Assembly (NCBI GenBank): GCA_018715545.1
Contig: DVLK01000098.1
Coordinates: 9,101 to 73,100 of the forward strand
Direction: 5' to 3'
DNA from: Candidatus Caccovivens faecavium
Lineage (GTDB): Bacteria; Bacillota; Clostridia; Christensenellales; UBA1242
Length of the DNA stretch: 64,000 bases
The notes under the pieces are model-generated. The model was not told where the DNA came from. It worked only from the letters and a program-made list of their open reading frames with translations, and did not search any database. The translations under genes were made by a program, and so were the position numbers. Positions within the stretch are counted from its first letter, which is position 1. Every line of letters starts with the position of its first letter. This document shows, piece after piece, positions 3,315-44,381 of this stretch.

Positions 3315-3590
3315 ATGCTGAGATAGATGGGGAGTTAGCGGTGCCCTGTAACCTGCAATCCGCTATAGCAGGATTGAACGCTTGCTTAGGAGTAATTTGG
3401 TTGAAGATGTGCGTAGGATAGGGGCGTTGAAATCAAGGTCTTATGCAATTGGTAACTCTGAACCATGTCAGGTCCTGACGGAAGCATCATTAAGGAGATC
3501 TATCGATGTGCCATAAGGTAGCTTTGGTGGAGTTTTTGTTCTACGAAACAGTCAGTCTTATTATTTCGAAGCATTCTCTCAGCCATCATC
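3315..3590 (+). ncRNA. ffs: Signal recognition particle RNA, large Bacillus type with Alu domain (scRNA/4.5S homologue)
   Basis: Conserved S-domain string GTCAGGTCCTGACGGAAGCA (~3466-3486). 5'-domain string CTGTAACCTGCAATCCGCTATAGCAGGATTGAAC as in Bacillus scRNA. 5' GCTGAGA (3317-3323) pairs with 3' TCTCAGC (3577-3583). Promoter upstream and terminator downstream. Ends are approximate. Confidence 0.9.
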
Positions 3591-3837: not shown

Positions 3838-4029
3838 TTACATCTTTTTCATTTCTTTTTTTATCTTTTCAATCTTTGGTTCGACCTTTTCTTTCATCTC
3901 GTTAATCTCTTTCTTTACCGCTTTTTCACCTTTATTGACCATAGATTTTGCGTCTTGCGAATGTTTGTAAAGAAGAGCGCCCGTTATCATGCCTGCACCA
4001 AAGCCTAGAAGTGTCATCAATTCTTTCAT
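3838..4029 (-). CDS. Small YtxH-like membrane-anchored protein (Gly-rich N-terminal helix plus Lys/Glu-rich tail)
   Basis: 63-aa ORF with strong RBS GGGAGGAAAATATG on the minus strand. N-terminal LLGFGAGMITGALLY is followed by a charged helix. Confidence 0.6.
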   Translation of the reverse strand: MKELMTLLGFGAGMITGALLYKHSQDAKSMVNKGEKAVKKEINEMKEKVEPKIEKIKKEMKKM

Positions 4030-4261
4030 ATTTTCCTCCCTATTTGTAGTATCAGCAAAAAAACGACAAAATATGCATAAAAAATGAAGAAAAGCCGTTG
4101 GCTTTCAAGTGAAAAAATCTTTGACTTTAAAGCAAAGAGAGGGCAGTGCTTTCCAGTGGAGCGGTGGAATTATAGAGTGCTTTTCTTTTTCGACAAAATA
4201 AGAAAATATTAGCTAAGTTAAAAAATTGTGCGCGCTCATATAGTGCTTTAAGGGGTGGACT

Positions 4262-5164
4262 ATGTTAAGCAAAATTCTTCCAGAAAAGATTGCACATATT
4301 GTTAACACAAAAATCAACTTAAAAAGCGTGAACGAGATTAGATTTCGTGCGGACAAGCCTATCATTGTGGCGGTGGGTGGGAAAAACTATTTTTTAAGCG
4401 AAAACGGGCTAACTTCATCGCTAAAAGACGCGTTATATTCATCTAAGATTGTCATTGAGGACATCATTTTTCGTGCAAGCGAGTGTTCAATATATTCTGT
4501 CAATGAGCAGATTAAAAAGGGGTATATTGTCACTGAAAATGGGCTAAGGATTGGTATTGGCGGAAATGTTGTGGAAGAAAACGGACAAGTTAAGACAATG
4601 ACAAATTTTAACAGCCTGAACATTCGTATTCCGCACGCCATTAAAAACTGCTCACTCTCATATTTTCCATATATCGTGCATGATAACACCATTGAAAACA
4701 CCCTTGTTATTTCTCCGCCAGGGTGCGGAAAGACCACTTTTTTACGCGATTTTGTGGCACAGTTAAGCGAACGAAATTTAACTTACAATGTGCTACTTCT
4801 CGATGAGCGTGGGGAACTGGACACTGAACTTAATGCCAACTTTTATGATAAAATCGCCTTTTCAAGTAAGAAAATGGGCTTTGAGAATGGGATTAGGTCG
4901 CTTTCGCCAGACCTCATAGTAACCGATGAAGTCGGGCAGGAAGAGGACATAGATGCTATTTTATACGCTTCGACCTGCGGGGTGAAGATACTTGCTTCCA
5001 CTCACGCTGATAGTATGGAAACCTTTATCAAAAAGGCACTTTTTCAAAAGTTAATCAAAGAAAAGGTGTTTAAAAGGTATGTGCTACTCTCCAAACGAAA
5101 TGGCCCTGGAACGAATGAAGGAATATATAACGAGAATTTTTCGCGGTTGTCATCTAGTTTTTGA
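4262..5164 (+). CDS. spoIIIAA: Stage III sporulation protein AA (ATPase)
   Basis: Walker A motif SPPGCGKTT and Walker B-like LIVTDE. It is the first gene of an 8-gene spoIIIA-ordered cluster. Confidence 0.9.
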   Translation: MLSKILPEKIAHIVNTKINLKSVNEIRFRADKPIIVAVGGKNYFLSENGLTSSLKDALYSSKIVIEDIIFRASECSIYSVNEQIKKGYIVTENGLRIGIGGNVVEENGQVKTMTNFNSLNIRIPHAIKNCSLSYFPYIVHDNTIENTLVISPPGCGKTTFLRDFVAQLSERNLTYNVLLLDERGELDTELNANFYDKIAFSSKKMGFENGIRSLSPDLIVTDEVGQEEDIDAILYASTCGVKILASTHADSMETFIKKALFQKLIKEKVFKRYVLLSKRNGPGTNEGIYNENFSRLSSSF

Positions 5165-5238
5165 TAAGTCTATTTTAGTTTAGTTATTGGCTTTAATTCT
5201 ATGAAAAGTTATTTATGTGCTTAAAAGGGGAGAAAGGA

Positions 5239-5733
5239 ATGAAATATGTCATCATTGCAGTTTTATTTGTGATTTGCCTTGTTGTTGGTTACACATTTTT
5301 TAGTAAGTATGATAAGCGGAAAAAGTTTTTTACTTCTCTTATCATGTTGGCGGAGAAACTTACAGTGGAAATCAATTTTTCGCGCGAGAGGCTTAAAGTT
5401 TTAATTGAAAATTTTGACAAAAATACAAAACAGAATTTGCTAGGCATAGATGAGGGCTTCATTTCTTATCTTGACAAAAAAACGGAATTAAACGAGAAAG
5501 AGATTTTTAAAAAGGCGGATGTTTTAAAGAAGAACGAAAAGGATTTTATTTTGCTATTTTTAAAGACGCTAGGGCGAAGTGATGTAGAAAACCAGACGAA
5601 GGAGATTGCAAGTTTCAACAAGCGTTTTCAAGAGATGAAGGCGTCAAGCGATTTGGAGTATAAAAAGTACGGCACGCTTTCACTTAAATTAAGTTTAATT
5701 GCAGGGCTATTTTTTGTGATTGTGCTTATTTAA
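5239..5733 (+). CDS. spoIIIAB: Stage III sporulation protein AB
   Basis: Position in the operon, with N- and C-terminal TM helices. I prefer the ATG at 5239 (RBS AAAGGGGAGAAAGG) over the ORF-track start at 5215. Confidence 0.8.
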   Translation: MKYVIIAVLFVICLVVGYTFFSKYDKRKKFFTSLIMLAEKLTVEINFSRERLKVLIENFDKNTKQNLLGIDEGFISYLDKKTELNEKEIFKKADVLKKNEKDFILLFLKTLGRSDVENQTKEIASFNKRFQEMKASSDLEYKKYGTLSLKLSLIAGLFFVIVLI

Positions 5734-5946
5734 CTGACTTTTCATGCTATGCACAAGTTTTGTAGCATTTACCATTTAACAAAAAACATTAGGCATTTAT
5801 TGTTTGTCATATAGCAAAGTAAAATTAGTCGCTATCTATCGCTGAACAAAACCATATTTGCTATTTAACACTGTTTGATTAAATTATAAAAACATGTTTA
5901 TTACGATTTTAACCTAAGTTGGAGATTTAGATAAAAAGGAAGATTT

Positions 5947-6141
5947 ATGGAGGTTGAAATAATTTTTAAAATTGCGGCAATCGGAATACTCACTGCTGTT
6001 GTCAGCCAAATTCTCAAAAACAGCGGTAAAGAGGACATTTCCACTCTTGCCACGCTTGCAGGAGTAGTTATTGTGCTTATTATGGTTATTAACCTAATTG
6101 CCGACCTGTTTGACACGATTAGAACGATTTTTAATTTCTGA
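5947..6141 (+). CDS. spoIIIAC: Stage III sporulation protein AC
   Basis: 64-aa two-TM protein (ILKNSGKEDIS...), with the typical SpoIIIAC size and position. Confidence 0.85.
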   Translation: MEVEIIFKIAAIGILTAVVSQILKNSGKEDISTLATLAGVVIVLIMVINLIADLFDTIRTIFNF

Positions 6142-6154
6142 AAGGAGGGCGAAT

Positions 6155-6547
6155 ATGGATTCTCTTTATAAGATTATTGGCATTGCACTTATAACCTGCA
6201 TTGCCACGCTTATCGTTAAGCCTGTTCGCCCTGATTTTGCCATCTTCATCTCTATTGTCGGCGGAGTGATAATTCTCTTTATGCTGGCAGGGTATTTAAC
6301 AGATATATTTGATGTTTTTAATCAAATTTTTAATTTCACAAATGTCAATTCTTCTCTCTATAAAATCATCTTCAAAATCATTGGCGTTGGTTATCTTGTG
6401 GAGTTCACCGCAAGTCTATGCTCAGACACAGGCAACAACAGCCTTGGCGATAAGGTGTTACTCGGCGGAAAGATAATAATACTCGTTATGGCACTTCCGA
6501 TTATCACAAGTATACTTGAAATTGTTATGGAGTTACTGCCGACATGA
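6155..6547 (+). CDS. spoIIIAD: Stage III sporulation protein AD
   Basis: Polytopic small membrane protein. The ATG at 6155 is preceded by GAAAGGAGGG. The ORF-track start at 6098 overlaps spoIIIAC and lacks an RBS. Confidence 0.85.
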   Translation: MDSLYKIIGIALITCIATLIVKPVRPDFAIFISIVGGVIILFMLAGYLTDIFDVFNQIFNFTNVNSSLYKIIFKIIGVGYLVEFTASLCSDTGNNSLGDKVLLGGKIIILVMALPIITSILEIVMELLPT

Positions 6548-7779
6548 AGAAAGATAAGAAATTATTGCGTAAAAAACGAAGGATCTTCATTATTGTTTTC
6601 ATCATCTTCATAGCTTCCTTCTTTGGCAGTTTCACGATTGATGGGTATGTTTTAAACACTCCTTTTGTTATGGCAGAAAGCGAAGAAGAAAGCTTAGAAG
6701 AGGAGTTAGAGATTGAGATTGGTGAGCAACTTGATGACCTTGATTTTTCCGATTTAGAAATATATATTAATAACCTTGAAAGCTCTGTTAAAGATATGTT
6801 CTCAGGTGGCTTTGTAAGCAAGGTGGAAAGTTTAATTAATGGCGAATATATCACTGGTGACAGTTTCCTTAGTTCTGTTTTCTCTCTTCTCTGGGATGGA
6901 CTACTTGATTTTCTACCGATAATTGCAAGCATAATTGCGATTTCCATACTAGGTGGAATGGTGGGTAACTTAAAGCCAAATACAGGCGGAAAGTCGATTG
7001 GAAACATTGTCCACTTTGTGACTTATGGTGTCGTCATCGTCTTTCTGGGGGCAACGCTTGTAGAACTTATCGCTTTGACAAGTAAGACATTGACAAGTCT
7101 AAAAAGTCTTATGGATATGATTTTCCCAGTGCTTTTAACCCTTCTCACTGCGGTTGGCGGAAGTGTGTCGGTAGGGCTATATCAGCCTGCGATAGCGCTC
7201 CTTGGCAATATCTTCATCTCTCTTATCACTTATTTTCTTATGCCATTATTTATCTTTTCAATAGTGTTCTCCATTGTCGGAAATCTCTCAAATAATGTGA
7301 AACTAGATAAGTTTGTAGCTTTTCTTCAAGGCACTTTCAAGTGGTCGATTGGTTTACTTTTCACTCTCTTTTTAGGTTTTATCACTATTCAGGGCATATC
7401 AGCAAGTGCTGTCGATGGACTTTCAATTAGAACGGCAAAATACACCATTAAAAGCTATGTTCCGATTGTAGGTGGTTATGTCAGTGACGGACTATCAATC
7501 ATCATGGCGTCAAGTATGCTGATTAAAAACGCGGTGGGAACGGCTGGGCTTCTTTTAATACTATTTAGCGTGATTTCGCCAGTTATAAGCTTGATACTCT
7601 TCATGCTTTCATTGCGCTTTATGGCAGGCATAATCGAACCGATAGGCGATAAAAAGACGGCGAATTTCGTTTCAGATATATCAAAGAGTATGAGTATGCT
7701 CATCGCACTAATTGTGGCAGTTTCCTTCATGTATATGGTGATGACAGGGCTTATAATGTGCAGTTGTAATTTGATTTGA
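6544..7779 (+). CDS. spoIIIAE: Stage III sporulation protein AE
   Basis: 411-aa polytopic membrane protein with an acidic N-terminal region. Position in the operon fits, and its start overlaps the spoIIIAD stop. Confidence 0.85.
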   Translation: MKKDKKLLRKKRRIFIIVFIIFIASFFGSFTIDGYVLNTPFVMAESEEESLEEELEIEIGEQLDDLDFSDLEIYINNLESSVKDMFSGGFVSKVESLINGEYITGDSFLSSVFSLLWDGLLDFLPIIASIIAISILGGMVGNLKPNTGGKSIGNIVHFVTYGVVIVFLGATLVELIALTSKTLTSLKSLMDMIFPVLLTLLTAVGGSVSVGLYQPAIALLGNIFISLITYFLMPLFIFSIVFSIVGNLSNNVKLDKFVAFLQGTFKWSIGLLFTLFLGFITIQGISASAVDGLSIRTAKYTIKSYVPIVGGYVSDGLSIIMASSMLIKNAVGTAGLLLILFSVISPVISLILFMLSLRFMAGIIEPIGDKKTANFVSDISKSMSMLIALIVAVSFMYMVMTGLIMCSCNLI

Positions 7780-7864
7780 AATATCGCTTGAATAAAAAAT
7801 GTTTTGCAAAAAGAGATATAAGTTGCAAGACTTCTCTTAACTTTTCACCTTTTAAGGAGTTTTT

Positions 7865-8368
7865 ATGAGCGGAATATCTGCGTGGTTATTATCTATCACT
7901 GGTGTAGTTCTATTATCTGTGCTTTGTGAGTTTATTTTGCCAGAAGGGCAGATTAATAGGTATGCGCGTGTAATTTTTTCCTTTGTCACGCTTTTTGTTA
8001 TCATCTCTCCGCTTCCCTCACTATTAAAAAAAGAAATCGACTTTTCCTTTCCAAATTATGACTACACGCTTCAAGAGGACTACCTATATGAGATAAACTT
8101 AAATAAACTAGATGCCATTCAAACTGACTTGCAAGAAGAGATTGAGGAAGCGGGAATATATAATATCAGAATTTCAATAAGTGCCAACGCTTATAGCGAA
8201 AATTTAGAGATTTACTCTATATATGTCGAACTTTGCGATATTTCATTTTCTGCTGATTTTGAAAATAAAAATAAAAGTGAGGCAAAGCGTGTGATAGAAG
8301 AGATTATTTCCTATATGCCAGCACTCAAAGATGTTCCAATTTCTTATGATGACACAAAGATTTTGTAA
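7865..8368 (+). CDS. spoIIIAF: Stage III sporulation protein AF
   Basis: Two N-terminal TM helices plus a soluble domain. Order in the operon fits. Confidence 0.8.
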   Translation: MSGISAWLLSITGVVLLSVLCEFILPEGQINRYARVIFSFVTLFVIISPLPSLLKKEIDFSFPNYDYTLQEDYLYEINLNKLDAIQTDLQEEIEEAGIYNIRISISANAYSENLEIYSIYVELCDISFSADFENKNKSEAKRVIEEIISYMPALKDVPISYDDTKIL

Positions 8369-8955: not shown

Positions 8956-9420
8956 ATGAAAAAAAGAACGAAGATAATCATTCTTTCACTAATGATAGTC
9001 CTTCTAGGAGTGACAGGTTATTTAAATATTGTTTTAAACAATAATGTAAGTCCAACTACGACCACAACTACAACATCCTACTTTGTTTCATATAGAAATG
9101 ATAGAGAAACTTCACGCGACCAACAGATGTTATACTATGACGCTATTATCGACAGTGAAACATCTAGCGCGGAAGCTAAGACAAATGCCGAAAATGCAAA
9201 ACTTGCACTTATTGCTTCCATGGAAAAGGAACTTGACACTGAAAACTTAGTTAAGGCTTGCGGTTTTTCTGATTGCGTTATCTCCATAACCGATCCTAAT
9301 GTTAATGTAGTTGTTGAATGTGCTTCTATTACAGACGATGAAAATATCATAATAACTAACACTGTTTCTGAGGCATTAGGTATAGAACCAAGATATATTG
9401 TAATAATTCCTGTTGAATAG
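8956..9420 (+). CDS. spoIIIAH: Stage III sporulation protein AH
   Basis: N-terminal TM helix and a YscJ/FliF-like C-terminal region. It is the last gene of the cluster. Confidence 0.8.
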   Translation: MKKRTKIIILSLMIVLLGVTGYLNIVLNNNVSPTTTTTTTSYFVSYRNDRETSRDQQMLYYDAIIDSETSSAEAKTNAENAKLALIASMEKELDTENLVKACGFSDCVISITDPNVNVVVECASITDDENIIITNTVSEALGIEPRYIVIIPVE

Positions 9421-9472
9421 TTTGCTTTTTATAAAAATATGTGCTAAAATGATGCTGTAAAAGGGAGTTTTT

Positions 9473-9844
9473 ATGGCAGTAAAGTCTGAGGACAATAAAA
9501 ATAAGGGTAAAATAACCTTAGATAGAAATATACTTGTGTCTATCATCAACCTTGCAACTAAGGAGATAAACGGCGTTGAAAGCGTATGTAATAAGCATCG
9601 TCCGCTTTATAAGAGAATGTTCAACCGTTACGATGACGGAGTGGAGGTAAAGTTCGAAAAGAATGGCGCATTGACCATTGATGTGTATATAAATATATAC
9701 ATTGGCTTCAATGTGCCTGACATTGCCTTCCGCGTGCAAGAGAACATCCGTAATTCACTTGCAACCATGGTGGCATTAAAGCCAATGAAGATAAATGTTC
9801 ACATCGTAGATGTAGAGTGCGATAGAGAGGCTTCCGATGCGTAG
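9473..9844 (+). CDS. Asp23/Gls24-family alkaline-shock protein (yqhY-like)
   Basis: Family-typical start (ITLDRNILVSIINLATKEINGV). Its position before nusB matches Bacillus yqhY. Confidence 0.85.
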   Translation: MAVKSEDNKNKGKITLDRNILVSIINLATKEINGVESVCNKHRPLYKRMFNRYDDGVEVKFEKNGALTIDVYINIYIGFNVPDIAFRVQENIRNSLATMVALKPMKINVHIVDVECDREASDA

Positions 9845-10217
9845 AGATGCAAGAGAGGGTGCGTTTAAACTCATCTTTGAAACGCTATTTAAGGATGCGG
9901 AAGAGGAAACGCTTAACGAAGTCATTAGCCCACTTAAAAAGGAAGCGGACATAACCTTTTGTGAAGACATATTTAACGCTTATAAAGAACATAGAGAGGA
10001 GCTAGAAAAAGAGGTATCAACGCATCTTCAAAATTACGATGTTTCGCGCGTTTATCGCATTGACCTTGCACTTATTTATCTTGCGCTTACGGAAATAAAA
10101 TATCTTTCCACTCCAAAAGCTGTGGCAATCAACGAGGCGATTGAAATTTCAAAAAAATATTCGACCATCGACAGCAAAAGATTTATAAATGGAATACTTT
10201 CAGCGATAATAGGTTAG
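9837..10217 (+). CDS. nusB: Transcription antitermination factor NusB
   Basis: N-terminal RRDAREGAFKLIFE and C-terminal FINGILSAI motifs. Confidence 0.9.
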   Translation: MRRDAREGAFKLIFETLFKDAEEETLNEVISPLKKEADITFCEDIFNAYKEHREELEKEVSTHLQNYDVSRVYRIDLALIYLALTEIKYLSTPKAVAINEAIEISKKYSTIDSKRFINGILSAIIG

Positions 10218-15404: not shown

Positions 15405-15914
15405 GTGTCTTTTGAAACTAATCGCGTGTCGCAAATTAAATTATATATAATACTTGATTCGTTTGTATTAATCTTACCATTTTTAATTGGATTACCAATT
15501 ACATTAGCAGAAAAGCGGTATGATGATTTATTTATCATGTTAAGTATTTGTATCCCTCTTTGTATTGTTGTTATTGTTCAATTTATACTTTTACGAAAAT
15601 ATTATTTAGGAAAAGTTTTTGTAAATGAAGAAGGCGTTGGATATAAATATAAAAACAAAACATATAAAATTTTTAAATGGGAAGAAATTATAAAAGTTAG
15701 TATTGGGAATGCGTATTTCGTTTTTTATAAGGATGAAAAGATAAATCGAGGCAAAAATATAGTAGAAATGAAGTATTCGTCAACAAATAAAAATTATTCG
15801 AAAATCATGGATACCTGCAAAGAAATATGTAAACTTATAGATTCAAAACAAAAAGAAAATGGCTTTCAAGTTCAATATACCAGTGAAAATGTTAGGAAAA
15901 TTTTTGAAAAATAA
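15405..15914 (+). CDS. Hypothetical membrane protein (2 TM helices plus a small cytoplasmic domain)
   Basis: GTG start 6 nt after AAGGAGGT. Very AT-rich. No family was recognised. Confidence 0.55.
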   Translation: MSFETNRVSQIKLYIILDSFVLILPFLIGLPITLAEKRYDDLFIMLSICIPLCIVVIVQFILLRKYYLGKVFVNEEGVGYKYKNKTYKIFKWEEIIKVSIGNAYFVFYKDEKINRGKNIVEMKYSSTNKNYSKIMDTCKEICKLIDSKQKENGFQVQYTSENVRKIFEK

Positions 15915-16111
15915 AATAAAAACTGCTTAGAAATTAAACGGTTTTACGCTTTGAGATGGTATTGCCACTTTTTGTTAAAAAATGAATTTGAACAAAAACA
16001 TAAGAAGCAATAATGTTGCGTGACATCGTCACTTTCAATAGGCAGAAAAATTAAGTTTGAATTTAAAAACATTAAACATCCAAAATTTGTTTGGTTTGTT
16101 TGGTAAAACGC

Positions 16112-16140
16112 TTGCAAAATATATTTCTATATGTTATAAT
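16112..16140 (+). promoter_or_regulatory. rpsB promoter (extended -10), giving a ~170-nt leader
   Basis: TTGCAA (16112-16117), 17 nt spacer, TGtTATAAT (16132-16140). Confidence 0.65.
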
Positions 16141-16319
16141 CATTCCGTCATTGGACAAATAAGCACTCAAAGCAAATTTTTAAACAGGTTGCCTGAACGC
16201 TTGCAAACTTTGGTTTTATGTTTTAAATTATGAATTTGTTTGCAGGTAAAAGAGTAATCTTGGGTTGGTTTAAAGAGTTAAAACTTTGGGGAAGGACAAA
16301 AACTAGGAGGTAAAAAATT

Positions 16320-17228
16320 ATGTCAGTTATTTCAATGAAACAACTTCTTGAAGCTGGTGTTCATTTCGGTCACCAAACAAGAAAGTGGAACCCTAAGATG
16401 AAAGAATACATCTTCACTGCAAGAAATGATATTCACATCTTAAATTTGGAGCTCACATCAGAGCAAATCGACAAGGCATACAGCTTTGTTCGCGATGTTG
16501 TAGCTTCTGGAAAGAGCGTGCTTTTTGTTGGAACAAAGAAGCAGGCGCAAGAAGCAGTTAAGGAAGAGGCAGAGAGATGCGGAATGTTCTACATCAACAC
16601 TCGTTGGCTTGGCGGAACTTTAACTAACTTCAAAACAATTAGAAACAGAATTGAGAGATTAAATAAACTCAATCAAATGGAAAAGGTTGGTGAATTTGAC
16701 CTTCTTCCAAAGAAAGAGGTTGCTCTCTTAAAGCAAGAAAGAGATAAGCTTGAAAAGAACCTCGGCGGAATTAAAGATATGCACGAACTTCCAGGTGTAC
16801 TTTTCGTTGTTGACCCAACCAATGAAAAAATCTGTGTTCATGAAGCAAACATCTTAAACATTCCAGTAGTTTCACTTGTTGACACAAACTGCGACCCATC
16901 AAATGTCACAATTGTAATTCCAGGAAATGATGATGCTATTCGCTCTGTTAAGCTCATTGCAAGCGCAATTGCAGACGCTGTTATTGAGGCAAGAGAGGGC
17001 GTTTCTATGCAGAAGAATGAAGAGGAAGACGAGAAGGTTGACCTTGAAAGTTTACTCACAGAAGCTAAGCCTAGCTTAGAGCTTGCTGAGGCTGGCGAGG
17101 AAGTTAAAAAGACAAACAAAAAACCTAAGAAAAAACCAGCCAAGAAAGTAGAAAAAACTGAAAAGGTTGAAGAAAAGAAAGAAGAAGTAAAAGAAGAAAA
17201 AGTTGAAGAGAAAAAGGACGCTGAATAA
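16320..17228 (+). CDS. rpsB: 30S ribosomal protein S2 with a ~70-aa Lys/Glu-rich C-terminal extension
   Basis: N-terminal [22 protein letters not shown]. The tail reads [40 protein letters not shown]. Confidence 0.97.
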
Positions 17229-17937: not shown

Positions 17938-17940
17938 TTT

Positions 17941-17970
17941 AAAGAATAGGTTTTCCTATTCTTTATTTTT
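17941..17970 (+). terminator. Intrinsic terminator after tsf
   Basis: Stem AAAGAATAGG / CCTATTCTTT with loop TTTT, followed by a T-rich tail. Confidence 0.8.
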
Positions 17971-17974
17971 ACTA

Positions 17975-18003
17975 TTGACATGTAAAATCAAATATATTAG
18001 AAT
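17975..18003 (+). promoter_or_regulatory. Promoter of the ThyX-like gene
   Basis: TTGACA (17975-17980), 17 nt spacer, TAGAAT (17998-18003). Confidence 0.6.
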
Positions 18004-18023
18004 ATTGTCAAGAGAGGTGTTAT

Positions 18024-19199
18024 ATGGAAGTTAATATTGTTGCGTCAACAAAGGTGAATTATAAGGCAGACAAAGAGGAACTTGATAGATTTGGAGGAAT
18101 AAGTGCGGGAATTTGTTATTCTCCAAATGGTTTTGAAAGTTTGCTAAGCGAAAATAGTGAAGCTACACAAAAAAGAATTGAAAGGACAAAAAATAGTGGG
18201 CACCATAGCGTCTATGGGCATGGTGAAGTATCTTTGATTTTAGAGGGTGTCCCTAAGGCTCTTGCAATGTTTTTGAATAATGAAAAGGAGTATAACACAA
18301 GCGAGCGCTCGGCAAGATACACCAAGATGAAACTTCAAGGAGAGGAAGAGGAAATCTATAATAAATGGGTGGGTATTTTTAAGAACAAAATTATGTCTAG
18401 ATATGCTGGTGTTGCACCTAATTTCTTTACCGAAAGAAAGATAACCACTTTGGCACAGGAGAATGCAAGGTATTTGATTTCAGTTTTCACTTTGACTACC
18501 CTTGAATATACCACTTCATATAGGCAACTTAATTACATATATGGCTTCATGCAAAAGGAAATACATAGAGAAAATCCTCTTGTTTTCGACAAGATGATAA
18601 GACCATATTTTATCGAATTTTGTGAAAAACTTAAACAGCTTAACCTCATAGACGAAAGGTTGCAAAATAATGGTAAGGGGAGAGAATTTAGCTTAATTGA
18701 CAGGGATGGCACGCCTCTAACAAAGTATTTTGGTGATGTGTATGCAACGAGTTACAAGGGCTCATTTGCTGAGCTTGCACAGGCACAAAGGCATAGAACG
18801 ATTGATTATAGTTTTAAATTTACAGATGAAAGTTTCTTTATTCCTCCAATAATTAAAGATGACGAAAAATTGGTAAAAGAATGGCTTAATGATTGTGCAA
18901 AGCAATATAATGTCTTTCCGCAAGGAATGTTAGTTGAAATTGAAGAGCGGGGAACATATAAAAACTTTATTTTGAAAATGCAAGAGCGCCTTTGCTCGTG
19001 CGCGCAACTTGAAATCAACAAGCAAACGCTTGAAACATTGCGCGAATATAAACAAGCGCTCCTTGCAAGCAATCATCCAAGATATGCTGAACTCAAAGAC
19101 TTTGATGCTTCAAGATGCACATTTCCAGATAAATATAAGTTTGACTGCAAAACGCCTTGCGTTTTTTATGAAGGCGTGACAGGAGAAAGAGAGATATAA
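18024..19199 (+). CDS. Divergent, double-length ThyX-like (FAD-dependent thymidylate synthase family) protein
   Basis: SGHHSVYGHGEVSL resembles the ThyX HxS..EH..F motif. SERSARY (aa 93-99) resembles S-x-RY but is not preceded by RHR. AQAQRHRTIDYS (aa 251-262) resembles ARQxxRHRxxS. RLCSCAQLEI (aa 322-331) resembles R....AQ.EI. Confidence 0.5.
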   Translation: MEVNIVASTKVNYKADKEELDRFGGISAGICYSPNGFESLLSENSEATQKRIERTKNSGHHSVYGHGEVSLILEGVPKALAMFLNNEKEYNTSERSARYTKMKLQGEEEEIYNKWVGIFKNKIMSRYAGVAPNFFTERKITTLAQENARYLISVFTLTTLEYTTSYRQLNYIYGFMQKEIHRENPLVFDKMIRPYFIEFCEKLKQLNLIDERLQNNGKGREFSLIDRDGTPLTKYFGDVYATSYKGSFAELAQAQRHRTIDYSFKFTDESFFIPPIIKDDEKLVKEWLNDCAKQYNVFPQGMLVEIEERGTYKNFILKMQERLCSCAQLEINKQTLETLREYKQALLASNHPRYAELKDFDASRCTFPDKYKFDCKTPCVFYEGVTGEREI

Positions 19200-19276: not shown

Positions 19277-19311
19277 TAAAAAAATTGAACGATCGTGTCG
19301 TTCAATTTTTT
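19277..19311. terminator. Bidirectional terminator between the ThyX-like gene and rpmB
   Basis: Stem TTGAACGA / TCGTTCAA (19285-19292 / 19298-19305) with an A-run upstream and a T-run downstream. Confidence 0.8.
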
Positions 19312-19486
19312 AGTTACCTTTTTTCTTAGCAGTCTTAATGCATTTTGTGCAAGCTCTTACTCTTTTTCCGTTAATTTCTGTTTCTTGAAGATTAACATTA
19401 TATTTTCTTGGAGCTTTGTTATTGGCATGGCTCACTGTTTTTCCGTCCATTTTGCCTTTTTCGCAAATTTCGCAAACTCTACTCAT
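19310..19486 (-). CDS. rpmB: 50S ribosomal protein L28 (58 aa; absent from the ORF track because it is under 60 aa)
   Basis: The minus-strand translation is MSRVCEICEKGKMDGKTVSHANNKAPRKYNVNLQETEINGKRVRACTKCIKTAKKKGN. RBS AAAGGAGAAGGG. It is divergent from asp23-yloV, as in the Bacillus rpmB/yloU-yloV arrangement. Confidence 0.85.
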   Translation of the reverse strand: MSRVCEICEKGKMDGKTVSHANNKAPRKYNVNLQETEINGKRVRACTKCIKTAKKKGN

Positions 19487-43071: not shown

Positions 43072-43308
43072 GTAAAAACGATGATGAAAGACTAGTAGGC
43101 TTGTGGTTTTTCTTACAGAGAGTCCTTTTTGCTGAGATAGGGCAGAAAAAGCAGGTTGAATTCACTTTCTAGTTGCACCTTGAAAGATTTTCGAGTAGGG
43201 GTTGTCGCGTGGGCAGGCGTAATTGTCATAATGAGGTGCTTATATAAGCATGAAATTAGGTGGTAACACGATTAATAATCGTCCTAATATTTTTAGGGCG
43301 ATTTTTTA
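43072..43308 (+). promoter_or_regulatory. T-box riboswitch leader, Phe specifier (UUC)
   Basis: Stem I GA-motif CGATGATGAAAGACTAGTA and AGAGA box (CAGAGAG). Specifier context GAA-TTC-A with TTC at 43161-43163. T-box sequence AAATTAGGTGGTAACACG (43253-43270). Terminator AATCGTCCTAA / TTAGGGCGATT (43277-43303) plus a T-run. Confidence 0.9.
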
Positions 43309-43361: not shown

Positions 43362-44381
43362 ATGAAAGAAAAACTTGAACAGATTTTAAAAGATGCACAA
43401 TGCGAAATTGAAAAGTGTGACGATGTTAAAACGCTTGATGAAGTTAGGGTTAAATTTTTAGGCAAGCAAGGGGAGTTAACTTCAATTTTACGAAATATGA
43501 AAGAAGTGCCACCAGAAGAGCGAAAAACTGTTGGTATGCTTGCTAATGGTGTTAGGGAGAAGCTTGAAGCTGCGATAAGTAAGAAAAGCGAAAAGCTTGA
43601 AGAAGAAGCTCTTTTAAAGGCTATGGAGAAGGAGAAGATTGATATCACCATGCCAAGCAAAGGAGTGAAAAGAGGCGCGCTTCACCCGCTCACTAGGTTC
43701 AATAATAAGTTTATGGATATTTGTGTTGAAATGGGCTTTACCGTTATCCAAGGCCCTGAGATTGACACAGATTACTATAACTTTGAAGCACTAAATGTGC
43801 CAAAAAATCACCCAGCACGCGATATGCAAGATTCTCTATACATTACAGACAATATTCTTTTAAGAACACAAACCTCAAATATGCAAGTACATGCCATGGA
43901 AGAATTAAAGCCTCCATTTAAGATTGTTTGCCCAGGAAGAGTATATAGAAACGATGATGATAGTTCTCATTCGCCAATATTTAACCAATTTGAAGCACTT
44001 GTTGTCGATGAAAATGTTGGATTAAAAGACTTGATGAAGATGATTGATGTCATATTAAAGAAACTATTTGGCGAAAATGTGAAGATGAGAGTTCGCCCTG
44101 CATATTTCCCATTTACCGAGCCTTCCATCGAAATTGATGCCACTTGTCAGATGTGCCAAGGCAAGGGTTGTTCTCTTTGCAAAGGTACAGGTTTTTCTGA
44201 GGTATTTGGCGCAGGCGTGGTCAATCCAAAAGTGTTAGAGATGTCGGGAATAGACAGCAAAAAATATAGCGGTTTTGCGTTTGGTCCTGGAATTGATAGA
44301 AGCGTGATGGTGACCAATAAAATTCCTAACATCAAATATCTGTTTAGAAATGATATGCGTTTCTTAAAGCAAATGCGCTAA
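43362..44381 (+). CDS. pheS: Phenylalanyl-tRNA synthetase alpha subunit
   Basis: HPLTRF, NHPARDMQDSLY and FRNDDDSSHSPIFNQFE, plus class II motif 3. Confidence 0.97.
   Translation: MKEKLEQILKDAQCEIEKCDDVKTLDEVRVKFLGKQGELTSILRNMKEVPPEERKTVGMLANGVREKLEAAISKKSEKLEEEALLKAMEKEKIDITMPSKGVKRGALHPLTRFNNKFMDICVEMGFTVIQGPEIDTDYYNFEALNVPKNHPARDMQDSLYITDNILLRTQTSNMQVHAMEELKPPFKIVCPGRVYRNDDDSSHSPIFNQFEALVVDENVGLKDLMKMIDVILKKLFGENVKMRVRPAYFPFTEPSIEIDATCQMCQGKGCSLCKGTGFSEVFGAGVVNPKVLEMSGIDSKKYSGFAFGPGIDRSVMVTNKIPNIKYLFRNDMRFLKQMR

Follow-up and report, generated by a model that had tools for sequence, protein, structure and literature searches.

Flavin-dependent thymidylate synthase (FDTS or ThyX) is essential in many bacteria, is absent from humans and is an antibiotic target, and both its mechanism and its physiological reductant are still under debate. 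The gene described here encodes a ThyX-like protein of 391 amino acids (aa) in Candidatus Caccovivens faecavium, in which two diverged ThyX-fold modules are fused in a single chain. It lies in a window of 64,000 nucleotides (assembly GCA_018715545.1, contig DVLK01000098.1, positions 9,101-73,100), to which the coordinates given below refer unless a locus or accession is named. The surrounding DNA is an ordinary chromosomal stretch, with approximately 35% G+C, a positive GC skew and nearly all of its genes on the forward strand. In the list of open reading frames (ORFs), the coding sequence starts with ATG and occupies positions 18024..19199 of the forward strand, stop codon included. It is preceded by rpsB and tsf and followed by a convergently oriented rpmB (19310-19486, reverse strand).

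The signals flanking the gene are those of an independent transcription unit, as had been claimed in the original prediction, which was made from the sequence alone; this claim holds at the level of consensus matches. A terminator-like hairpin with an 11-pair stem followed by a T-run (17940..17965, forward strand) closes the upstream tsf gene. It is followed by a sigma-70-type promoter-like site, TTGACA-17-TAGAAT (17975..18003, forward strand), which has 11 of 12 consensus matches and is the best of the region, the assignment being by consensus only. A ribosome-binding site, GAGAGG (18012..18017, forward strand), can be read six nucleotides before the ATG. Between the gene and rpmB there is a second hairpin with a T-run (19279..19311). 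It is bordered by A-runs and, on its opposite flank, by T-runs, and it abuts the 3' end of rpmB. From this arrangement it is probably a bidirectional terminator, shared by the two convergent genes. A scan of the region upstream of the gene against Rfam found no RNA element such as a riboswitch or leader.

Two ThyX-Fold Modules in One Polypeptide

The protein had been described in the original prediction as a double-length chain with two ThyX-like modules, leaving open whether the Pfam profile Thy1 (PF02511) would find one domain or two. The profile recognizes the whole protein with E=8e-15 and 55.6 bits (cut-off 24.8), thus above the gathering score, and does so in two stretches; each half also matches when searched separately. 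The N half alone aligns over aa 27-173 with profile positions 16-162 (E=1.5e-9, 38.4 bits), and the C half alone over aa ~247-344 with profile positions 67-187 (E=1.4e-4, 22.1-22.7 bits, slightly below the cut-off). When the C modules of relatives were isolated in the same manner, 19 of 35 matched Thy1 unaided, the best with E=3e-9. Since the two stretches both cover profile positions 67-162, they point to a duplication and not to one domain carrying an insertion. A single ThyX domain with an insertion was considered and is ruled out by this overlap.

Structure prediction has led to the same picture. The full-length AlphaFold2 monomer model has a mean predicted local distance difference test (pLDDT) score of 89.4 and a predicted template modeling (pTM) score of 0.87. 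A Foldseek search of this model against the PDB returned, at E<=1e-3, only chains of ThyX and of the ThyX-like enzyme PolB, with each match about one module long, and no solved structure with the two-module architecture was found in that search. The C module folded on its own gave a predicted model with a pLDDT of 92.6, and the Foldseek matches of this model were ThyX chains only (144 at E<=1e-3), with ~150 of 176 residues aligned and template modeling (TM) scores of 0.50-0.55. For the N module, hhalign gave a 92% probability over 130 columns against Thermotoga maritima ThyX, and the family profile aligns it to the ThyX chains of PBCV-1, Helicobacter pylori, Mycobacterium tuberculosis and T. 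maritima. Sequence matches in the PDB were confined to this half: the whole-family profile aligned to PDB sequences over the N module only, and the C-module profile had no significant match among them. Membership of the ThyX/Thy1 superfamily is thus indicated by both the profile score and the predicted fold. The canonical homotetrameric ThyX (PF02511; TM0449 of T. maritima and the enzymes of M. tuberculosis, H. pylori and PBCV-1) has the same fold as both modules.

Division of the Active-Site Residues Between the Modules

In the solved ThyX tetramers, every active site is composed from three subunits. The subunit that holds flavin adenine dinucleotide (FAD), termed subunit A, supplies the RHR motif and Arg174 (H. 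pylori numbering), the latter also touching the substrate, deoxyuridine monophosphate (dUMP). Subunit C in H. pylori ThyX, the dUMP holder, supplies Arg66, Ser84, Arg86 and Tyr87, and subunit B, the third subunit, supplies Ser50 and Arg165 (PMC6514825). In T. maritima ThyX, H53 sits on the third monomer and S30 touches the flavin (PMC11940539). When these assignments are transferred to the fused protein, the residues fall into two groups, with each role being confined to one module.

The N module (aa 1-215; 18024..18668, forward strand, as are all features in this section) has a ThyX fold and carries two of the three roles. The third-subunit residues are S62 and R167, equivalent to H. pylori Ser50 and Arg165, together with H60, equivalent to T. 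maritima H53. H60 and S62 belong to the motif GHHSVYGH (aa 59-66; 18198..18221), in which S62 also corresponds to M. tuberculosis Ser71. The dUMP-holder residues are K78, S96, R98 and Y99, equivalent to H. pylori Arg66, Ser84, Arg86 and Tyr87, and also E94, E146 and R149. Of these, E94, S96, R98 and Y99 lie in the retained dUMP/active-site loop TSERSARY (aa 92-99; 18297..18320) and match T. maritima E86, S88, R90 and Y91, while the motif ENAR (aa 146-149; 18459..18470) corresponds by hhalign to T. maritima E144...R147. The FAD-holder residues have been lost from this module: in the alignments the canonical RHR position reads NNE (aa 85-87; 18276..18284), and the R174 position is occupied by M176.

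The C module (aa 216-391; 18669..19196) is a truncated ThyX fold with a cysteine-rich tail, and carries only the role of FAD holder. By alignment it retains RHR (aa 256-258; 18789..18797), that half of the ThyX signature which binds FAD, preceded by Q253, which is equivalent to T. maritima Q75. It also retains the motif RLCSCAQLEI (aa 322-331; 18987..19016), in which R322 is equivalent to T. maritima R174 and is followed two residues on by an invariant cysteine, C324. Its losses comprise the SxRY loop, which is deleted, the equivalent of R147, and the ~65 residues with which the fold normally begins, and with them the helix that bears H53.

The motifs themselves had largely been located in the original prediction. 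The HxS..H block GHHSVYGHGEVSL (aa 59-71), SERSARY at aa 93-99 and the NNE replacement are all present in the N module. In the C module, the ARQ-like block AQAQRHRTIDYS exists as described, although one residue away from the position given for it (aa 252-263 instead of aa 251-262). It is followed by FKFTDESFFIPP (aa 264-275), where the deletion proposed for the SGRY segment, here the SxRY loop, has been confirmed, and the predicted R....AQ.EI motif is the RLCSCAQLEI described above. Neither module has the contiguous signature RHRxxSxxxxSxR(Y): RHR is replaced in the N module (NNEKEYNTSERSARY), and SxRY is deleted from the C module (RHRTIDYSFKF). A canonical ThyX is a single module with a contiguous signature, whereas the fused protein combines an N module reading NNE...SxRY with a C module that has RHR but no SxRY loop. 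Across the two modules combined, the full canonical set of FAD and dUMP contacts is present, with counterparts of the canonical residues H53, Q75, R78-H79-R80, E86, S88, R90, Y91, E144, R147, R165 and R174. Since each module keeps whole subunit roles and the losses are complementary, the pattern of retention does not resemble random decay.

Conservation and Distribution of the Family

Clustering at 90% identity divides the family into 4,268 clusters, and at 50% identity it is covered by 610 representatives, almost all of ~390 aa. Conservation was counted in 350 unique members aligned with the family hidden Markov model. The key catalytic residues are conserved in at least 97% of these, except for R167 (82%). 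Among the third-subunit residues, H60 is present in 347 members and S62 in 338; among those of the dUMP holder, K78 in 347, S96 in 347, R98 in 349 and Y99 in 344. The counts for the ENAR motif are 347 (E146), 345 (N147) and 349 (R149), and those for the FAD holder 337 (Q253), 346 (R256), 343 (H257), 345 (R258) and 347 (R322). Q328 and E330 of RLCSCAQLEI were found in 345 and 349 members, respectively. The replacement of RHR is itself conserved, with N85 in 345 members and N86 in 300. In a deep alignment including members down to 33-36% identity, R98, N147, R149, C324, E330, C375 and C379 are invariant.

According to a genome scan, at least 545 GTDB species carry a member of the family. Among the matches listed, all are metagenome-assembled genomes (MAGs) of uncultured gut or rumen bacteria, with the carriers belonging either to the Clostridia (Christensenellales, 'Catabacter', Caccovivens and similar) or to reduced-genome Bacilli labeled Tenericutes, Onthocola or Clostridium sp. 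CAG:524. In the databases, family members are labeled either 'FAD-dependent thymidylate synthase' or 'hypothetical protein'.

These data bear on the proposal that the protein is a degenerate or regulatory ThyX paralogue devoid of catalysis, for instance a nucleotide- or flavin-binding sensor. Such a role would be in keeping with the fact that each module misses part of the signature, and with the failure of the protein to satisfy TIGR02170, the curated ThyX equivalog model. Yet what one module has lost matches exactly what the other has kept, conservation of the retained catalytic residues is 97-100% in sequences down to ~34% identity, the family extends over the large number of species given above, and its genes are found in operon context with tmk, glyA and folD. 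This alternative is consequently regarded as very improbable. The complementary losses, taken together with the near-invariance of what has been retained, indicate selection on a working composite site. The presence of two ThyX-fold modules with complementary, role-wise retention is, in our assessment, close to certain.

A Second Fused Family with the Same Motif Split

A tblastn search of the window protein against a phage collection gave no match. A fold search of viral models, on the other hand, detected double-length ThyX-like proteins that aligned across both modules. The best of these was the 491-aa 'putative thymidylate synthase' BAF36111 of Microcystis phage Ma-LMM01 (475 columns, E=2e-11; gene at 15717-17192 of locus L087, from AB231700, reverse strand). 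It belongs to a long fused family of 460-590 aa, which was sampled in cells and in large phages (37 members; for example, a gene at 4001-5578 of locus L088) and whose phage carriers include Microcystis, Microcoleus, Tunturiibacter and Vibrio jumbo phages. One cellular member of 525 aa has tmk divergently adjacent to its gene, with dcd, ndk and a NUDIX gene within 3 kb.

The long family has the same two-module order and the same motif split as the 391-aa family. In essentially every one of its members, GHxS and S-T-R-Y/F each have a single copy, located in the N half; with two exceptions among the 37, RHR likewise has a single copy, located in the C half. The long proteins nonetheless differ in being 70-200 residues longer, in lacking the cysteine tail, in ending with a conserved ...EFFDRS, in occurring in other hosts and in having a similarity too low for detection by tblastn. 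An hhalign comparison of the two families aligned only their N modules (84% probability), and the window protein has neither detectable full-length homology to a long-family member nor the ...EFFDRS tail. The presence of the same split, in the same order, in two such distant families indicates that complementary motif retention is either a recurrent or a very old solution. The interpretation of the protein as a fused pseudo-dimer with complementary motif retention, put forward in the original prediction as plausible, is thus supported: the two modules are genuine ThyX folds, the residues partition by subunit role, and the pattern is kept across the 350 relatives and recurs in a second, very distant family.

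A further two-module protein was encountered in BFVD, where A0A127AWA5 is a 413-aa two-module ThyX-like 'thymidylate synthetase' of Bacillus phage SP-15. A hypermodified thymine is carried by this phage, so that some enzymes of the fused ThyX-like kind may produce pyrimidine nucleotides with modifications and not deoxythymidine monophosphate (dTMP). Active ThyX proteins of ~530 aa occur in chlamydiae and may be members of the long family, which includes proteins of 525-531 aa; they are not enlisted as evidence here. The literature search found no structure, biochemical study or paper dealing with a fused, duplicated or split ThyX, and likewise no characterization of the long family. One match to 'two-domain' (PMC9931769) was discarded, as the term refers there to the tree of life and not to the architecture of ThyX.

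A further conserved position lies at the extreme C-terminus. In the 391-aa family, the chain ends in ...R-x-I, with the arginine two residues from the C-terminus (R389) present in 319 of the 350 members, and the long family likewise has a conserved ending, ...DRS. A C-terminal arginine may reach into an active site or an interface.

Proposed Assembly of the Active Site

In the proposed model, the gene product would be a flavin-dependent thymidylate synthase in which, following duplication and fusion, either module would retain just part of a composite active site. The C module would hold FAD and activate dUMP by means of Q253, R256-H257-R258 and R322. The N module would hold dUMP through K78, E94, S96, R98, Y99, E146 and R149, and would in addition supply the third-subunit residues H60, S62 and R167. 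A complete site would therefore be made up of one C-type module, acting as FAD holder, and two N-type modules, one as third subunit and the other as dUMP holder. Since there is one N module per chain and two are needed per site, at least two chains must associate.

If the modules are placed on the 222-symmetric ThyX tetramer, two of the positions would be filled by N modules and the remaining ones by C modules, and the three two-fold axes would give rise to four candidate sites. In two of these the position of the FAD holder is taken by an N module, which has neither RHR nor R174, so that those sites would be dead. In the remaining two, a C module would be the FAD holder and N modules would fill both of the other roles, giving complete sites. 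The assembly would then be a dimer of chains forming a pseudo-tetramer (N, N, C, C), in which half of the four sites are complete and half degenerate; we consider this reasonably probable. In comparison, the canonical tetramer has 222 symmetry and four equivalent sites. The prediction of a homodimer with two sites derives from the published subunit assignments and the alignments.

A different possibility is that the protein is a monomeric, self-contained pseudo-dimer in which one chain forms one complete active site. The AlphaFold2 monomer model is indeed compact and confident, and fusion is a common route to fixing an interface. Nevertheless, the canonical site draws on three subunits, and the dUMP-holder and third-subunit residues are both located here in the single N module. 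With one N module per chain, a single chain cannot fill both N-type roles unless the geometry is rearranged, and the monomeric form is thus considered quite improbable.

For the association of chains, the closest precedent, as cited in PMC3498832, is the reconstitution of ThyX sites in heteromers whose subunits carry different mutations (Leduc et al., 2004, PNAS). The principle is the same, with subunits defective in different residues complementing each other. The subunits of that study were engineered and on separate chains, whereas in the fused family the complementation would have been fixed by evolution within one polypeptide.

Gene Neighborhood and Probable Function

The function of the family was approached through the genes surrounding it in 79 genome loci from related MAGs. 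A gene of the dTMP-kinase family adjoins the fused gene on the same strand, at a distance of 1-53 bp, in 21 of the 79 loci. Its place is upstream in Clostridia-type loci and downstream in Bacilli-type loci, which implies at least two independent arrangements. In Bacilli-type loci, genes for serine hydroxymethyltransferase (SHMT; 633 bits, cut-off 335) and FolD are found directly upstream, resulting in the order folD-glyA-fused thyX-tmk-queA (for example, at 4117-8068 of locus L083). The genes that provide the methylene donor are thereby lined up with the gene for the methylation itself and with that for the kinase acting next. In ~8-11 loci, NrdD and NrdG of the anaerobic ribonucleotide reductase are encoded close by. 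A scan for canonical thyA, thyX and folA found none in the 64-kb window, nor within 10 kb of 86 related loci (1.39 Mb).

Some details of these neighborhoods deserve mention in their own right. The adjacent dTMP-kinase-family proteins (~227 aa; at 9292-9975 of locus L026 and in 20 other loci) score below both NCBIfam equivalog cut-offs, with 118 against 193 and 66 against 83 bits, indicating that the partner is also a divergent form in these lineages. In eight loci from one Clostridia sub-clade, the fused gene is immediately preceded, at a distance of 3-58 bp, by a codirectional deaminase gene (for instance, a 149-aa protein at 9463-9912 of locus L019). A deoxycytidine monophosphate (dCMP) deaminase was considered for these 147-149-aa proteins and rejected, as NCBIfam gives 126 bits for TadA and 32 bits for ComEB. 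The neighbor is thus a TadA-like tRNA adenosine deaminase, and offers no pathway evidence. In two Hadza-derived contigs (L001, 7418-13164; L002, 7506-13164), genes for conjugation and type IV secretion, encoding a TraG/TrwB-type coupling protein and pilin-like proteins, lie directly downstream of the tmk-thyX pair, which suggests an integrated conjugative element inserted there. Further features of the window, without relation to the ThyX protein, are a bacterial large signal recognition particle RNA (3318-3582, forward strand, 160 bits) and a T-box leader (43072-43289, forward strand, 119 bits) upstream of an ORF at 43362-44381.

The gene context supports true dTMP synthesis. The same pathway context of tmk, glyA and folD is common to canonical ThyX and the fused family, and the same chemistry is to be expected: as in the canonical enzyme, dTMP would be formed from dUMP and 5,10-methylene-tetrahydrofolate via reduced FAD. 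Judged by residues and gene context, the protein is very probably a genuine dTMP synthase.

A different nucleotide-modifying activity had been raised as an alternative in the original prediction, and deserves to be weighed. The ThyX fold could serve other chemistry, as in a PolB-like C5-methylase of uridine monophosphate (UMP), an enzyme producing 5-hydroxymethyl-dUMP or modifying dCMP, or a nucleic-acid uracil methylase. The polyoxin-biosynthesis enzyme PolB (PDB 4P5A/4P5B), a ThyX-like C5-methylase of UMP/dUMP, has the fold of ThyX and performs a flavin- and folate-dependent pyrimidine C5 methylation, and its structures score about as well as those of ThyX in the fold search. The score far under the TIGR02170 cut-off can be read in the same direction, as can the fused ThyX-like proteins of large phages (including that of SP-15), the family-specific constraints embodied in the invariant cysteine set and the conserved NNE replacement, and the loci in which the gene follows tadA or, as in the window, neighbors translation genes. 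PolB, however, has one module per chain, forms homo-oligomers and is encoded within a gene cluster for an antibiotic, in contrast to the fused family with its housekeeping thymidylate and folate contexts. All canonical dUMP and FAD contact residues are kept somewhere in the chain and are nearly invariant; codirectional adjacency to the genes for dTMP kinase, SHMT and FolD recurs in housekeeping chromosomal contexts; no biosynthetic cluster or phage context surrounds the gene; and the deaminase neighbor, being TadA, says nothing either way. Other chemistry is therefore disfavored by the recurring operon-like arrangements, and we hold it to be improbable.

Several observations nonetheless weigh against the proposed model of a fused, two-module dTMP synthase. 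The match of the C module to any single ThyX sequence by hhalign is weak, its assignment depending mainly on Pfam and on the fold. An hhalign comparison of the N module with the C module was not significant (E=0.18), so that there is no direct sequence evidence of an internal duplication, and the case rests on the match of each module to Thy1 or ThyX; their common origin is inferred from these separate relationships. The TIGR02170 score is 31.4 bits (cut-off 87.9), for a match limited to aa 17-111, and by NCBI criteria the fused protein is thus no equivalog. The copy in the window has tsf and rpmB for neighbors and is accompanied by no other gene of the pathway. The neighborhood counts come from related MAGs that are not phylogenetically independent, although at least three distinct arrangements are represented. 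Finally, the presence of thyA or a canonical thyX elsewhere in the carrier genomes would make a different role likelier. Taking these points into account, a fused two-module ThyX with a split composite active site remains the best explanation overall, and a probable one.

A Candidate Metal Site at the C-Terminus

Five cysteines are essentially invariant among the 350 family members: C31 (345), C324 (349), C365 (343), C375 (349) and C379 (347). Four of them, namely C324 and the three of the C-terminal motif C365-x9-C375-x3-C379 (19116..19160, forward strand), are all located in the C module, with C324 next to the catalytic R322 by an interval of two residues. The motif is absent from both canonical ThyX and the long fused family, and relative to canonical ThyX the four cysteines are thus an extra, invariant feature. 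The C-terminal tail that contains the motif is mostly coil and confidently modeled (block pLDDT 78-93). A comparison of the tail with solved structures by sequence gave no match, and the literature search for a metal site in ThyX found none.

From this pattern, C324, C365, C375 and C379 likely constitute a metal site, a candidate for Zn or Fe-S. For four invariant cysteines in a cytoplasmic enzyme of an anaerobe, the simplest reading would be Zn(Cys)4 or [4Fe-4S], with the tail tied to the loop of the catalytic arginine; the metal would anchor the C-terminal tail beside the R322 loop. A redox-active [4Fe-4S] cluster near the flavin, allowing ferredoxin or flavodoxin to replace NADPH as the flavin reductant in strictly anaerobic gut Firmicutes, is a more doubtful extension that we consider rather unlikely.

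The fifth cysteine appears to be of another kind. C31 aligns with a cysteine in H. pylori ThyX and, in the same register, with Ser30 of T. maritima ThyX, and the only substitute seen in the family is serine. Ser30 is a folate-loop residue that forms a hydrogen bond with the flavin C4=O (PMC11940539). On account of this alignment with a flavin-contacting residue, C31 is probably an active-site residue, and is less likely to be a metal ligand.

Implications for ThyX Biology

A ThyX function for these proteins was to be expected, and some records are already annotated accordingly; the architecture and the cysteine site are what stands out. The invariant cysteines and the second fused family are additions to the original prediction. 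As a natural fused enzyme with complementary half-sites, the protein reveals which subunit gives what to the composite site. It also represents a clean example of subfunctionalization after duplication and fusion. Given that an obligate two-site enzyme is predicted, half-of-the-sites behavior and communication between subunits become directly testable. If the cysteine site proved to be redox-active, the view of flavin reduction in ThyX would change, and with a [4Fe-4S] cluster the protein would become the first flavin-dependent thymidylate synthase with an iron-sulfur center, in addition to having a hard-wired half-of-the-sites asymmetry.

The finding also has consequences for the organisms concerned. 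The NCBI equivalog model misses the family and many of its members are recorded as 'hypothetical', which affects metabolic reconstruction and the prediction of folate and thymidine auxotrophies. Hundreds of uncultured Firmicutes species of the gut and rumen, comprising both Christensenellales and reduced-genome Bacilli, probably obtain their dTMP through this family.

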